UHGV virus genome: UHGV-0293664
Source of the DNA: a virus
DNA: 64,000 nucleotides
Direction: 5' to 3' (one strand)
The notes below the pieces were generated by a model. The model searched no databases, was not told where the DNA came from, and saw only the letters and a list, made by a program, of their open reading frames with translations. Position 1 is the stretch's first letter. Each line of letters starts with the position of its first letter. This document shows, piece after piece, positions 1,640 to 56,943 of the stretch. Made by a program: the position numbers and the translations under genes.

Positions 1640-2683
1640 ATGACTAAACCAGTTATCCCTCTTGATATTTGGGCCAATCAGGATGTTGTGCTTGAAAATA
1701 CGGGAGAGTTGAATAAATCTCAACCAAAAAAAGAAGAGAGATTGAAAGGTTGGGATATGACACAAAGAATGGCATGTGAAGTTGTTAACTTTGAACTTCA
1801 CATGCTTTCTGCGTGGTTGAAGCATTTAACAGAAGATGTTGTCCCAGGATGGGATAATAGATTCTTAAGGGTCACTAATAACCTAGCAGACGTTCCAGAC
1901 AAAGCTGCTGCACGTCAAGTTCTCAATGTATACTCACCTGAAGAAATGGACGATCTATATGTTGACAAGTCTGGAGACATAATGACTCAGACTCAAACTT
2001 TAGGTCTTCAAAGAATCGAGTTTGCATCTGCGTCAACAGACAGTGCGGCAATATACACCACCATAACTCCAGACAAGACGACGATGGATTTCTGGATTAT
2101 GGACAACATCGGTGGTGCTGACGGCACAGACCTTGATGATCCTTCTCACCAAATAGACGGGTTCCGTTGGAGATTTCAACCTTCTGGTGGGCAGCCTGTG
2201 TTTTCGGCTATGAAGCTCAATGCTATAACTGCCAACCGTGCAAGACTGGCTATCCAAGGAAATCTTGAATGTAACGATGCAAAAAGTTCCTCTGCAAATG
2301 CCAATGCGGTCACGATACCAAGAGCCACTGTTAACGGACAACAATCCTGCGGAAGCGCTCAAATAGGTGGAAGAGTTGATTGTAACGATGAAACCGTTAG
2401 GGGCCAATATGCAACCGTTGGTGGAAGAAACGTGGTCCGCAGGGTAAATGGTAACAGCGCAGACGGTAGTGGTAACCTTACTATCCCTATGCCTAGCAGA
2501 GGGGTTGATGATGTAAGGATAGCGAACCGTTTCAAAACCACCTACAGAGAGTCAAGAGTCTACCCTGGACATGTGATGTGCTCTGGTAACTACGCCTATA
2601 AACACCCTTATCAAGGTGATTACTGGACAGGTGCTATCCAAAAACTTGTAAATGGTCAATGGATCACTATATCTTATGCTTAA
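1640..2683 (+). CDS. tail fiber protein
   Basis: 347-aa ORF; SD AGGAGAA; C-terminal domain paralogous to upstream partial fiber gene. Confidence 0.8.
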   Translation: MTKPVIPLDIWANQDVVLENTGELNKSQPKKEERLKGWDMTQRMACEVVNFELHMLSAWLKHLTEDVVPGWDNRFLRVTNNLADVPDKAAARQVLNVYSPEEMDDLYVDKSGDIMTQTQTLGLQRIEFASASTDSAAIYTTITPDKTTMDFWIMDNIGGADGTDLDDPSHQIDGFRWRFQPSGGQPVFSAMKLNAITANRARLAIQGNLECNDAKSSSANANAVTIPRATVNGQQSCGSAQIGGRVDCNDETVRGQYATVGGRNVVRRVNGNSADGSGNLTIPMPSRGVDDVRIANRFKTTYRESRVYPGHVMCSGNYAYKHPYQGDYWTGAIQKLVNGQWITISYA

Positions 2684-43372: not shown

Positions 43373-43477
43373 TATGGGAATATTTTATGGGATACTGTTT
43401 TATAGGAAATTGTTACGGAGGGTAATTAGCGTGCTAATTAAATTTATGAAATGCGAGGAGTTCTCATTTAGAATTTT

Positions 43478-43700
43478 GAATGATAATCATTCTCGTTTGC
43501 AGAATAACGGGCACCCCCGGTGATTGTCTCCCGGCCCCTGTTGCCCCGGCTTGTTATTATAGTATCACACAGGACAAAGAAAGCAAGGACTTTTTGCATA
43601 AATTTTTAGACGATAATGATAATCGTTCTCATTTCATGCAGCGCCCATCCCCGGTGGTTGTCTCCCCCGTCACCGGTGCCTGCCGTCCTTTCGATATGTA
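43478..43700. repeat. tandem duplication (~120-bp unit) each carrying a GC-rich box ...CCGGTG(A/G)TTGTCTCCC...
   Basis: Both units start GATAATC.TTCTC.TTTC; boxes at 43510-43550 and 43641-43688. Confidence 0.6.
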
Positions 43701-52811: not shown

Positions 52812-53075
52812 ATGAAACGCCTTGATCAGCTCAAATTAGTTCAATATATGGCTTATCGTGTTCTTGAAGTCCAGAAAGGTAGCAAAAAAGAGGTTTGCGA
52901 GAAAGCTTATAAGATCTTCACTCGCAAAAAAGATGACTGGATGCTACGCCAGACCAAAAAGGCTGACATCTTGGGGTACCTGGAAGAAGAGATCCGACTT
53001 GAAGAGCAAGAAGAGATCCGCCGTAGTGAGGCAGATTATCAGGCCGCTTGGGAAAACTGGATGAGCAACAAATAA
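52812..53075 (+). CDS. early protein
   Basis: 87 aa; SD AAAGAGGAAAAA. Confidence 0.75.
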   Translation: MKRLDQLKLVQYMAYRVLEVQKGSKKEVCEKAYKIFTRKKDDWMLRQTKKADILGYLEEEIRLEEQEEIRRSEADYQAAWENWMSNK

Positions 53076-53218: not shown

Positions 53219-53638
53219 ATGAACATTAAATCTAATAATCCGGCATATAGCTTTGATAACGCTTTTTGTCACGGTCCGGCGGCGAAAGGATTCGAAATCG
53301 ATGGTAAACTAATTATTGTCAATGTTGACGGGGAAGAGGTTGCAGTATATCCGGTGGCAGACGTAAAAAGCCGTTTACAATGCCGCATGGATGTTACCGC
53401 CTATCAGCTTGATCCGGTCCGCATAGTTGCCCTGGTCCTGGAGGAAGAAATTAAAGCCATGCACCATAGCAACAGGTTTATTGGTGACGCTCAGGATAAT
53501 ATGAAGGTGTGCCGCCATAAAGTTAATGAAGTGCTTAAAGAGTACGGCTATAAGGATTTAATGATCAAGCGTGATGAAAAATTCCGCTACCGTAACGACC
53601 TGGCAAATCGGATTTTTGAAATATACGAATCATTATAA
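53219..53638 (+). CDS. early protein
   Basis: 139 aa; SD TAAGAGG. Confidence 0.8.
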   Translation: MNIKSNNPAYSFDNAFCHGPAAKGFEIDGKLIIVNVDGEEVAVYPVADVKSRLQCRMDVTAYQLDPVRIVALVLEEEIKAMHHSNRFIGDAQDNMKVCRHKVNEVLKEYGYKDLMIKRDEKFRYRNDLANRIFEIYESL

Positions 53639-53656
53639 TTTCTTAACTGAATTATC

Positions 53657-53685
53657 AAGGGGCTTAAAGGCCCCTTTCTTTTTGT
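53657..53685 (+). terminator. intrinsic terminator closing the plus-strand early block
   Basis: AAGGGGC-TTAAA-GCCCCTT then TCTTTTTG. Confidence 0.8.
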
Positions 53686-56201
53686 CTGCTCTTCTCCTAC
53701 CATAAACGGCCCTACCTGGCAAGTGGAATAATTGACTAGCCATCAATCCCACACACTGTACAAATATACATGGAAAATAACTATTGCATAATTTTTCATT
53801 GTGTGGTAGCAAGTCCATTTTTACCCGTTTTCTCTCCCAAAATTGCACGTAATGCCGCTATTGCACAAATTTTAACCTGATGCACATCTCCAATATCTTG
53901 TCAACAACTAAAAATCTTTATAAGTCATACACTTACACAGCATCGAAAGCGTGTTCTACGCGAAAAATCGAGTATAACTATAGCCGCCAGATCTCAGAAT
54001 TCACGTACGCACACCATTCTATAGTCCGCTAAGTATTTATTCCAACCACAGAATAACGGAATAGTCAATACCTGTACAAAATAATTATTCGTATAAACTG
54101 CATAACATAAACCTGTCCAGGTGTCAACATTTTTCGTAAACAGTCTGAAATTGTCACGATAGGTTACTATAATCAGAGAAATCTTTAGTCGTCTAATGTT
54201 TACTGCACATAACTATACTGACTGGAATCATTAGATGACTAATAGAAAGATAAGAAATAGTTAACAATGTAATTGTTTTACCTGTAACAATAAGGCAACT
54301 ATGCAAACGAATGTCATGGCGCGACGGAGTCGCGACATAATATAAAAGCAGTAACCATCACCCCCGTGATAGTTTGTCTGCAAACTATTAATCAGATCAT
54401 AGTTGCCTTGTATTTAGTTAATCATGACATAACAAGCAAGGCAACTATAGATCTGCTAATAGTTGCCCTGCTTTTATATTATGTCATATATTATTAACCT
54501 GTTAATTGTCAGCTTGTTGGATGTTAGCTTGTCAATTATTAACTTGCTAATTGTTTTCATGCAAACGAATGTCATGGCTGATTATTTCTATGTAAATGGT
54601 TTGTTCGTAAACAGTTTATTCGGGAACAGTTTATTCGGGAACAGTGAGGCATGCAATAGTAACAATTGTTATTGTATCCAGTGTGTTGAGTATGCCCAGT
54701 GTGTCCAGTATGTCAGACAAGTTTTTCCTCTCTTTGTCAAGTGCCGCATTAAAAATTTACAAACTGGTATGGTAGCATTTTTGCGGCCCTGTTTACATTC
54801 AGCAGTGTATGTATAACCCTTGTTGTGTGGGCGTTTAGACGTCTAGACGGTTGGAAGTCTACAGGTCAATATCTAATCTATTGGCTGCTAACTATATCCC
54901 ACACAAATAGTAAGAAATATGATTGTTATATGCGTAAACTGTAACTCATGTTATCAATCCCTGTATGTATCGCCAGTGGTTCGCATAATGGGTATTATGT
55001 TAAATTGCCAGTAATGATAACGATTCTCACAATGATAGGTATTCTCATTCATCCACACAAAATAGTTTGCAAATGTTGTGCCACTGTGTGAACGGCCTGG
55101 CCTATTAATTTCTCTCACTGCCTCGATATTTGAGAATTGTTATAAGAATGAGAAGTATTCCCATTCCGTCCGCCTGGCAGCGCTCCTGTAGGTCCTGCAA
55201 GGACTCTAGCTGAAAGCTAGACCCTTCGGGCCTCCCTGTAGGTCAGGTCAAAATCGTGGTAGAATTGGGCCTGTTCAGATATTTCTGGCTGACTCTTCAG
55301 GTCTGTGTGGGAAAAGCCAACCTCTCCGGCGGGGCAGGGGGTCATGACGGTAAAATTGCAGGTCAATTAAAAAATTTACGTGGTGTATGAAGCGCTCTTC
55401 AGGTAAGGCAGGTATTATGGGATGAAACCCTCTTCAGGCAATGATATTTGTGGGTGTGATATTTGCTGGAAAGCCAGATATGACGGGACTCCCGGCGGGG
55501 CAGGGGTAGTACAGACAGGGGAAATATGGGGGATGTGGTTGGGGAAATTGATCAGGCAGGAAGAGTATGGAATATGTTACAGATATGTTAAATATGAAGG
55601 TAGGATATTTGTAGGATTTGTGTGTAAAATCAAAGACTTAAGTGGTGTTGTGGTATTTTCTATAAATAATTCAAGTTTAATAGGCAATATTTGTCTCTAT
55701 CCGCTTTGTGTGGTAAACAGATTCAGATGAGATTGGTTTACAGGTGTATACATAATATACAAATTAAAGATACAAGAAACCCCCCTCCCCCTTCGGCTAC
55801 CATTCACCTTTTCCTCTGACTGGTACTTAAACACTTATTCAGACTCTTCAGGTTATCACCCATATATCATATGGCAGTGACTGGTGTCCTCCGGCCCCTC
55901 TTTCGTCACCCGTCCGCTTCGCCATGCTAATGCCATAGCCAAATGTTCGGTTGTTCACCCTGTTCACTCAGGTGTATCTCCATACCCCTTCAAACCGAAG
56001 AGAACAGAAAACCCGAATTACTCGGTAAAAGAAAAGAGAAGAACTTAATTTTATCAGGATAGGCAAGAATGTCAAGGCATGACTGCTCACTAAACAAGCA
56101 AACAGTCATGTGTGGGAGGTAAGTGATTGTGGTGGTAGGAAATTTAGTTGAAAGATGTGTTATAGGTGCTCCAGCACTTTATCCAGGCAGCTAATTGTGT
56201 G
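53686..56201. other. 2.5-kb non-coding, AT-rich, repeat- and palindrome-rich region at convergence of plus and minus transcription
   Basis: No convincing ORF; direct repeats, large inverted repeats and tetraloop hairpins (see findings). Confidence 0.7.
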
Positions 56202-56417
56202 TCAGTCCAGCGGTTCATCCTCTACTTCACTGAAATCAATGTTCATGGTCTCCTCCCAACCATCGATCTCAGCACAAGAGTGGAGTTCTTTAGGGTTTAC
56301 CCCCAAAGCCTCAGCAACAGAGTCTATATTTAACACCTCTGGCAGGTATGATTCATCGAATTCAAGGTAAATCAGGCCACGAGTGTTGTCAGCTCCACCA
56401 AATATCTCTATCTTCAT
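56202..56417 (-). CDS. small acidic protein
   Basis: 71 aa; GAGGAG SD 6 nt upstream. Confidence 0.75.
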   Translation of the reverse strand: MKIEIFGGADNTRGLIYLEFDESYLPEVLNIDSVAEALGVNPKELHSCAEIDGWEETMNIDFSEVEDEPLD

Positions 56418-56538
56418 TGAATCTCCTCTGGAAATGAGAGTGTGAACAGGGTTTCATACGTTACAACACGCTGGAATTATGCACGTTTGCCTCTTCAGGC
56501 CATGCTCTAGCATGAGGAACCTGTGTGGGCTCGGTGCT

Positions 56539-56943
56539 TCATAGTCTACCACCTCTGAACTCTTCGTGCTCAGGCATAATAGAGAACCAGATATCTACGA
56601 TGTCTCCCCACGTCAAGTCATCAGCCTCAGGATCTACCTGGAGCGAAGATGGAGAATCTTCAGAATCGAAGTTTTCCCCTTTCACTGGCTCAGCCAGGCT
56701 ACATATGGTCGTCACTCCTTCAGATGCATGTATGTTGATCATGTTCCACCCGTGAGTATTCCGGCAACAGCCGCTATGGACGTAATGATCATCAGGATCA
56801 CCACTAAAACCTCGGATAATGTTCTCATTGTGTATTCCATATTCTCCAAACGATGTGTGGATACTATCACGAGAGCGGTAATGTGTCAACAGAAACGCCG
56901 CGAGGGTTTGGTTAAAATCCGAGCGTATGGTGATTTTGGTCAA
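56539..56943 (-). CDS. possible acidic protein (start uncertain)
   Basis: 134-aa ORF with TTG at track start; lies downstream of a minus-strand terminator; competing plus-strand ORF looks low-complexity. Confidence 0.35.
   Translation of the reverse strand: MTKITIRSDFNQTLAAFLLTHYRSRDSIHTSFGEYGIHNENIIRGFSGDPDDHYVHSGCCRNTHGWNMINIHASEGVTTICSLAEPVKGENFDSEDSPSSLQVDPEADDLTWGDIVDIWFSIMPEHEEFRGGRL

Follow-up and report, generated by a model that had tools for sequence, protein, structure and literature searches.

A duplicated, conserved non-coding DNA module just outside the direct terminal repeat of an rV5-like coliphage

Phages with a direct terminal repeat (DTR), such as T7 and T3, cut their concatemers site-specifically, and the sites recognised by terminases are typically short repeated boxes beside the cut, as in lambda cosB, SPP1 pacL/pacR and P1 pac. 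To our knowledge, outside T7 and T3 almost nothing is known of such packaging signals for the class of DTR myoviruses. Here we analyse a set of short repeats in the virus genome UHGV-0293664, of which a stretch of 64,000 nucleotides (the window) was studied. The window belongs to an rV5-like coliphage of the genus Vequintavirus, with a genome type of ~137 kb; phages of this type find wide use in the biocontrol of E. coli O157 and in therapy cocktails. The repeats are housed in a gap of ~2.5 kb poor in open reading frames (ORFs), roughly 53650-56200, with convergent gene blocks on either side. Since the DTR of this phage occupies 54716-55174, the repeats begin 96 bp outside one DTR boundary, beside the cut site of the mature genome. 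They belong to a composite module that is present twice, and we consider it nearly certain that they form a non-coding cis-element which is under selection, acts at the level of DNA and is linked to the genome end.

Two motif families were apparent. The first, CTCTTCAGG, occurs exactly at 55293, 55395, 55430, 55844 and 56491, always on the + strand. Six occurrences were found in the 64-kb window, with 0.58 expected, a number that none of 100 shuffles reached, and in the complete genome of phage Gotham five of the nine copies lie within the last 1.75 kb, all in one orientation. The second, CCGGCGGGGCAGGGG, occurs exactly at 55326-55340 and 55492-55506, 166 bp apart. An earlier note on this DNA had placed the first two CTCTTCAGG copies correctly and the third at 55428 instead of 55430, and had seen both CCGGCGGGGCAGGGG copies, with coordinates off by one. 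It had also described ATGACGG as following each CCGGCGGGGCAGGGG, which is true of copy 1 (55344-55350) but not of copy 2, where it precedes the box (55480-55486). ATGACGG is not enriched in the window (six found, 5.45 expected) and after copy 1 it falls in an indel hot spot and is missing in most relatives; its association with CCGGCGGGGCAGGGG is spurious. The proposed period of ~170 bp does not hold either, as the CCGGCGGGGCAGGGG copies of relatives are spaced by 146-148 bp (nine genomes), 165-167 bp (six) or 177 bp (one), and a duplication of the full 166 bp was discarded, strict local alignment recovering only the 19-nt G-rich core. Scans of the sequence collection with the bare 15-mer and with GCTGACNCTTCAGGT gave mostly chance matches in unrelated contigs.

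A gapped local alignment of 55270-55340 (module A) with 55429-55506 (module B), both on the + strand, reached a score of 47, compared with a mean of 18.5 and a maximum of 35 for shuffled sequences (0 of 1000 reached 47). It contains the collinear blocks CCTsTTCA, GATATTT, GGAAA(A)GCCA and CTCyCCGGCGGGGCAGGGG, and both motif families are parts of one module present twice. A and B are thus a diverged local duplication, of a unit of ~75 nt and not of 170 bp. The earlier suggestion of a diverged duplication or spaced binding sites was essentially right, in that there are two similar copies of a module that is conserved as non-coding DNA across genera; its size, its period and the part given to ATGACGG had to be revised.

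The order of elements in the module is [C]CTsTTCA(GG), then GATATTT (single or as a tandem pair 15 nt apart), a spacer of ~40 nt, and a G-rich box with the consensus C(T)CyCCGGCGGGG-N-GGGG. Module A holds CCTGTTCA, a degenerate CTCTTCAGG, followed by GATATTT (55278-55284), CTCTTCAGG (55293-55301), TGTGTGGG (55304-55311), GGAAAAGCCA (55310-55319) and the G-rich box CCGGCGGGGCAGGGG (55326-55340). Module B holds CTCTTCAGG (55430-55438), the tandem GATATTT pair (55443 and 55458), GGAAAGCCA (55468-55476), ATGACGG (55480-55486) and its G-rich box (55492-55506). Between the two modules lie the indel hot spot with the first ATGACGG (55341-55362), which is absent in 12 of 19 relatives, replaced in two and enlarged by a 50-nt insertion in one, and a further CTCTTCAGG, copy b (55395-55403, + strand), embedded in a 20-nt repeat, ATGAAnCnCTCTTCAGGyAA, that it has in common with copy c, 35 nt downstream. 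Three of the four terminal GATATTT copies have a G-rich box at +40 to +60, versus 0 of 24 elsewhere in the window (p=0.0012). The decisive context beyond what the earlier note contained is this GATATTT box, which joins CTCTTCAGG to the G-rich box, together with the genome terminus 96 bp away.

We assessed conservation in an alignment of 17-20 genomes, counting the variable columns of each box across 20 genomes; 122 phage records match the 2.6 kb around the repeats at 80-99% identity, nearly all of them Vequintavirus. Two conserved islands, 55275-55325 (98% conserved, in module A) and 55375-55525 (93-98%, around module B), are separated by the indel hot spot. Only 1 of 27 columns varies in CTCTTCAGG copies a-c, whereas the local background has 51% variable columns (p=3e-7) and the conserved islands themselves have 30% (p=0.004); GATATTTsTGG varies in 3 of 33 columns, and both boxes are thus under purifying selection. 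The counts are 9 of 15 and 6 of 15 for the G-rich boxes of copies 1 and 2, and 10 of 14 for ATGACGG. Copy 1 of the G-rich box exists in several sequence variants, all of them G-rich and two of them predominant; therefore the exact 15-mer repeat is specific to a lineage, and the conserved feature is the pair of G-tracts.

An ORF of 102 aa (55422-55730, + strand) runs through the repeats. It is present in the window as an ATG ORF, and the doubts that had been expressed about it, with comparative alignment named as the check, were borne out. Only one other phage keeps the frame open; stops interrupt it after 35-60 codons in 17 of 19 relatives, two have no start codon, and the reading frame is shifted by a G4/G5 run at ~55528. 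Over its first 35 codons we counted 10 synonymous and 20 non-synonymous changes, distributed 9/6/12 by codon position, which is not a coding-type pattern. Judged by this decay and these substitutions, the ORF is spurious and not a gene.

The ends of the genome can be placed within the gap from independent records. Gotham (MT682716) is deposited with a 459-bp DTR at both ends, which aligns end to end with 54716-55174 at 93% identity, and the records of HdK5, Pr121LW and bov10K2 start or end at the same two points. For LL12, PhageTerm gave a non-permuted repeat of 459 bp (PMC6658697). In the window the DTR is present as a single copy, that is, in concatemer or circular-assembly form. It ends with the signal GATATTT-N36-GTCCGCC (55125-55174, + strand), the boundary falling directly after 55174, while the opposite boundary (54716-54741) has a conserved signal of its own that begins at the boundary and reads (G/A)ACA..TC..TTGTCAAG, also written AACAC...TTGTCAAG.

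We then compared 13 genomes of the Vequintavirinae: the window, rV5, the Klebsiella phage KPP-1 (Mydovirus, with a published DTR of 514 bp), the Escherichia phage Av-05 (Avunavirus), the Erwinia phage Hena1 (Henunavirus, with an annotated DTR of 519 bp) and eight IMG/VR contigs of 83-148 kb. In all 13, GATATTT begins exactly 50 nt upstream of where GTCCGYC ends, and in the three lineages whose termini were determined independently, namely Gotham/LL12, KPP-1 (L139 2017) and Hena1 (519), GTCCGYC forms the very end of the DTR, so that the published or annotated termini of these lineages match the cross-genus boundary signals to the base. Beyond the boundary, the first outside GATATTT follows after 25-119 nt and a G-rich box 51-56 nt further on, again in 13 of 13 genomes. 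The module is on the same flank and in the same orientation in every one of them (at least four named genera), though the spacers between its boxes cannot be aligned. As in module B, the outside GATATTT often comes as a tandem pair, spaced by 15-17 nt. L311 and L315 have CTCTTCAGG immediately adjoining GATATTT, and in Av-05 three copies of CCTTCAGAG follow directly on the boundary; therefore, both motif families belong to the module. Throughout the Gotham genome, the modules are limited to this flank and to a single orientation. BME3, a Justusliebigvirus from the sister subfamily, lacks this architecture in its DTR. An inverted repeat in KPP-1 suggested that CTCTTCAGG might have a symmetric partner on the other side of the DTR boundary, but the window has none.

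We regard a cis-acting recognition or positioning array for the packaging terminase as the most likely role of the modules, with a probability of roughly 0.45, because a box of the same kind stands at a fixed distance from the cut and because arrays of boxes are used by the terminases of other phages. The modules would act at the DNA level, in the unique DNA immediately outside one DTR end; the terminase would be their binding partner, and they would be needed for cutting or packaging. Cleavage of the concatemer would fall right after GTCCGYC, at this junction only, and the one to three additional GATATTT-plus-G-box modules beyond the cut would bind further protomers of the terminase (small subunit) or, alternatively, would mark the site for the translocating motor. 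Three observations weigh against this. Among close relatives the distance from the cut to module A ranges over 67-151 nt and the spacing of A and B over 146-177 nt, and across genomes the outside module lies 25-151 nt from the cut; such variable distances argue against a rigid protein-DNA architecture. The true end signal, when aligned with the modules as a possible homologue, shows no significant similarity to them beyond GATATTT and the ~50-nt geometry. Finally, the columns of the G-rich boxes are fairly variable, as the counts above indicate, and what they retain is G-richness alone, a pattern as compatible with a structural or compositional role as with a protein site.

Immediately beyond each DTR boundary the alignment shows hypervariable DNA (54475-54700 and 55175-55260). 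From the DTR end to module A (55175-55260) identity is 0.37-0.80, and the distance from the DTR end to the first CTCTTCAGG ranges over 67-151 nt because this spacer has presence/absence indels. In it, 11 nt outside the DTR end, is a 50-nt cassette (55185-55244) flanked by 10-nt direct repeats, CCTGTAGGTC, and containing three mini-hairpins, GTCCTGCAAGGAC, CTAGCTGAAAGCTAG and CCCTTCGGG; among close relatives the cassette is present, absent or exchanged for other sequence. The other flank of the DTR (54260-54715) is AT-rich (29-36% GC), is ~100% conserved in part (54300-54475) and holds a dense set of other repeats: four copies of CAAGGCAACTAT, in both orientations, a perfect 18-nt inverted repeat (54334/54468), an exact 20-nt direct repeat (54301/54559), three tandem 15-mers (54599-54645) and tandem 9/18-mers that end 1-2 nt before the DTR start. 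This flank looks iteron- or origin-like. The DTR itself contains palindromic, operator-like repeats of AATGATAAnnATTnTCA (55013-55047 and 55131-55163), which adjoin the dif-like site described below; related repeats are found in the terminal regions of KPP-1 (L139 2941-3164) and of the unrelated BME3 (L317 50-75 and 255-275). We rejected a Fur-box identity for the repeats in the DTR, which match at only 14 of 19 positions; the Fur-like boxes at 43476-43494 and 43612-43630 are stronger, with 15 and 17 of 19.

The G-richness of the boxes could also point to a structure-forming or replication element, in which a G-quadruplex (G4) or hairpin by an AT-rich stretch would serve replication priming or initiation, duplication of the DTR or protection of the end. 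We consider this unlikely. The G-box of module B and the G-tract run that follows it form a G4 motif (55485-55521), one of only three in 64 kb, and five runs of four or more Gs fall within 48 nt (55497-55544). The G-tract run (55518-55617, + strand) has the strongest strand skew of any 100 nt in the window (G 36, C 3); it is followed by DNA of 28-33% GC, and the GC skew flips sharply at ~55750, to -0.6 at 55750-55850. Further, all G-box variants keep two G-tracts 1-3 nt apart, and a C-tract before the G-box in all genera confers hairpin potential. However, module A and the modules of most other genera have only two G-tracts, too few for an intramolecular G4. The boxes are associated with neither a replication initiator nor iterons, the iteron-like AT-rich repeats being on the other flank, and the authors of the rV5 genome could not place the origin from skew (PMC3606486).

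The DTR carries a second element that is conserved throughout the group, a dif-like XerC/XerD site of the form GGTTCGCATAA-TGGGTA-TTATGTTAAAT (54978-55005, + strand). It matches E. coli dif, as given in PMC3025954, at 25 of 28 positions. Among 16 aligned vequintaviruses the match is 26 of 28 in 15 and 25 of 28 in rV5, whose centre is TAGGTA; the arms match at 21 of 22 positions in the window and at 22 of 22 (both 11/11) in the 16 aligned relatives. The centre, TGGGTA as opposed to TGTATA in the host, differs from that of the host in all genomes examined. In KPP-1 and Hena1 the site likewise falls inside the DTR; Av-05 and eight further contigs have it at the homologous position. Every Vequintavirinae genome examined (at least four named genera) has it with no more than two arm mismatches, at a fixed 153-165 nt before GATATTT, or 119 nt in Vequintavirus. 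Coordinates are 170-197 and 136736-136763 in Gotham (MT682716), 2230-2257 (- strand) in L139, 289-316 in L308 and 5246-5273 in L271. As the site is in the DTR, each virion DNA has two directly repeated XerCD-type sites, and their non-host central region would favour recombination of phage by phage over phage by host. In the literature searched we found no paper linking Xer or dif with these phages. A different arrangement of Xer sites was seen in the IMG/VR contigs L264, L270, L274 and L305 (31-262 kb), where two or three dif-like sites with non-host centres lie within ~100 bp and adjoin clusters of DnaA-box-like TGTGGATAA.

The proximity of this site raises the possibility that the G-rich boxes are FtsK-orienting polar sequences (KOPS; consensus GGGNAGGG, PMC2800217) that load FtsK directionally beside it, the phage manipulating the host FtsK/XerCD system. 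In its full form, the terminal region would be a device that hijacks the host machinery of dimer resolution, with a functional dif in each DTR and genuine KOPS in the G-boxes. After injection, XerCD would then circularise the linear genome by recombining its two ends, in the manner of Cre/lox in P1, or would resolve multimers; the G-boxes would load FtsK at a set place and in a set direction beside the dif-like site, and this loading would control when and from which side XerD is activated, or would keep the translocase off the packaging signals. Judging from the sequence features, we consider both the KOPS assignment and the device as a whole rather unlikely, a shade more so than a replication element. 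Both G-boxes hold GGGCAGGG (55332 and 55498, + strand), with GGGGAGGG on the - strand at 55783, and the near-perfect dif site is 327 and 493 bp from the two + copies. The copy-1 variant fits the consensus in 17 of 20 vequintaviruses (as GGGCAGGG, GGGGAGGG or GGGAAGGG), at least one + copy and the - copy at 55783 are retained in 20 of 20, and a KOPS core is found in the G-box in 10 of the 13 Vequintavirinae genomes, in constant orientation relative to dif.

On the E. coli chromosome KOPS are FtsK loading sites that point to dif, and here G-boxes with GGGCAGGG stand 0.33-0.5 kb from a site that matches dif at 25-26 of 28 positions; but both + copies point away from dif, on the XerD side, which would be the wrong direction for FtsK to activate XerD (as follows from PMC2800217 and PMC3130261). 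The motif is neither enriched in the window (6 found, 5.4 expected) nor polar genome-wide in Gotham (8 on the + strand, 10 on the -), and it is not present in all genera, the G-boxes of Hena1, L309 and L313 being without the A. Copy 2 is broken in 4 of 20 vequintaviruses, and the fact that the genomes with a broken copy 1 do not overlap with those with a broken copy 2 is not significant (about 0.49). A KOPS role also leaves CTCTTCAGG and GATATTT unexplained. Between the convergent KOPS we looked for a second dif-like site and found only a half site resembling a XerD arm (55583-55593), with no 28-mer at seven or fewer mismatches.

Somewhat less probable again is a Rho-dependent terminator, that is, a Rho utilisation (rut) site on the minus-strand RNA that would halt the leftward operon before the DTR, the repeats being mere C-rich tracts. 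No other part of the window has so strong a C>G bias as 55518-55617, whose minus-strand RNA would contain 36% C and 3% G, and no intrinsic terminator was found for the leftward operon, either here or by the rV5 authors (PMC3606486); a C>G bias of the transcript is seen also at the other flank and at the flank in KPP-1. In this respect the locus resembles rut sites such as lambda tR1, with a C-rich, G-poor transcript after the last gene of an operon that has no intrinsic terminator. However, rut sites are defined by composition, while here specific 7-9-mers are invariant. Neither the sequence-specific conservation of CTCTTCAGG and GATATTT nor the fixed geometry of the boxes across genera would be expected of such a site. 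The module is kept in other transcriptional contexts: in Hena1, L309 and L316 it lies upstream of an outward-reading gene and not downstream of a converging operon. The strongest skew, moreover, is downstream of module B, outside the modules.

A non-coding RNA, either a G-rich + transcript leaving the DTR or the 3' part of a minus-strand RNA from the promoter at 56075-56048, is very improbable. That promoter is a near-consensus sigma-70 promoter with conserved hexamers and points at the region, all motif copies have one orientation, and mini-hairpins of GNRA/UUCG type occur at 55195-55232. On the other hand, Rfam gave no match at the gathering threshold or at E<=10, and the folding of 55270-55530 does not differ from shuffled sequences (z = -0.18 on the + strand and +0.02 on the -), that is, no stable RNA structure was found. 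Indels of 19-80 nt are tolerated between the boxes, and conservation falls at 55700-55775, between the invariant block described below and the modules. We also considered and dismissed sigma-70 promoters built on CTCTTCAGG, the -35 element of the candidate at 55441-55414 being destroyed in four relatives, and, by inspection, a reading of CCUGAAGAG/CGCUCUU as lambda boxB/boxA, because a single copy alone can form the boxB-like stem. Just as improbable is that the repeats are a neutral relic of local duplications without function, or that ORF 55422-55730, present as an ATG ORF, encodes a small protein: the region is rich in indels and slippage products, the exact 15-mer identity is specific to a lineage and half of the relatives have another copy-1 allele, but the boxes are far more conserved than their surroundings, the module persists in at least four named genera without alignable spacers, and the ORF is broken in 17 of 19 relatives, its changes being 20 non-synonymous and 10 synonymous.

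Two copies of CTCTTCAGG lie beyond module B. Copy d (55844-55852, + strand) is within a nearly invariant block of 270 nt (55776-56045), in which 11 of 270 columns are variable; the neighbouring gene has 17% variable columns and the DTR 21%. The block is directly downstream of the extended -10 sigma-70 promoter at 56075-56048 (- strand), whose sequence, TTGACA-16-TGnTAAAAT, matches 11 of 12 consensus positions and keeps its hexamers while the spacer diverges. The fold of 55770-56045 on the minus strand is not significant (z=-1.54) and Rfam has no match for it; the block is a candidate for an unannotated RNA gene or a DNA element. The copy at 56491 is in a conserved intergenic stretch of the leftward operon (56483-56530), near a palindrome, CATGCTCTAGCATG, and near CTGTGTGGG, which follows CTCTTCAGG both at 55293 and at 56491; the 40 nt that precede this copy are variable, with indels of 1-2 nt. 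TGTGTGG is three-fold over-represented in the window (32 copies, 10.4 expected), and 10 of the 32 are within a terminal region of 3.1 kb (53749-56860), in both orientations.

With respect to gene context, the + strand genes stop at 53638 and are followed by a good intrinsic terminator (53657-53676), and the - strand genes end at 56202. The gap carries no annotated gene in the records of the BASEL phage EduardKellenberger, of navn and of rV5, and our tRNA search found none. In the rV5 genome paper it is drawn as a "non-coding" box, in which the expected bidirectional terminators were not found (PMC3606486). Our literature search found no paper that characterises the 2.5-kb gap and none that describes these repeats. 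A host origin of 55175-56200 was discarded, blastn giving zero matches among 5,426 E. coli genomes. Nineteen records named "UNVERIFIED: Campylobacter phage" (MG065646-MG065690) are 81-96% identical to this E. coli vequintavirus in the non-coding region and are probably mislabelled or contaminating coliphages. Upstream of the gap, the records of APCEc02, navn and nomo label an ORF of 87 aa (52812-53075, + strand) as "DNA translocase FtsK"; Pfam matches it to neither FtsK nor FtsK_gamma, the best E value being 0.018 to unrelated families, and the label looks unfounded.

Our results place the physical genome ends within the gap, define cut-site signals at both DTR boundaries and identify the repeats as a subfamily-wide cis-element beside the cut, thereby offering a concrete candidate map of the packaging signals of a DTR myovirus. 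Such a map can be of use in genome engineering and rebooting, in the assessment of transduction risk, in the orientation and annotation of genomes and in dropping spurious ORF calls. Should the dif site prove functional, it would tie a virulent phage to the host Xer/FtsK system in an unexpected way and, were the whole device real, a virulent myovirus would be an element that exploits Xer and FtsK.

The dif-like site is comparable to those of integrative mobile elements exploiting Xer (IMEX), such as CTXphi and TLCphi, and to plasmid cer/psi, in being a host-type site, XerC-6 bp-XerD, on a mobile genome. It differs from IMEX in belonging to a virulent myovirus with no known integration and in lying inside a short exact DTR, and from host dif by 2 nt in its central region. 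In the dif-like sites of phages, the XerD arm is often degenerate and the central region longer (PMC3025954), while here, in the aligned relatives, both arms are perfect. As with loxP and Cre in the cyclisation of P1, the two direct repeats of each virion DNA could recombine to form a circle.

With regard to packaging, lambda cosB with its R-sites, the SPP1 pacL/pacR boxes and the hexamer repeats of P1 pac resemble this locus in that short repeated boxes cluster a few hundred bp or less from the point of cleavage and one of them keeps a constant distance to it. Those systems package by cos or headful mechanisms, whereas here an exact DTR is formed; the box sequences are unrelated, and the spacing between modules shifts by tens of nt among close relatives. 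The concatemer junctions of T7 and T3, with their pac signals, differ in that there is no sequence similarity, the genome here is that of a ~137-kb myovirus and the element is a repeated bipartite module (GATATTT plus G-box) defined by its sequence. The T7 junction has a pause mechanism for the phage RNA polymerase (PMC3276506) and this locus has none, and the DTR described here also holds a dif-like site. KPP-1 has nevertheless been classed as T7-type by PhageTerm (PMC9862379), and the two systems have in common a non-permuted DTR that is short (160 bp in T7 and 459 bp in this phage), DTR boundaries at fixed conserved sequences, and short conserved elements in the unique DNA that flanks the repeat.

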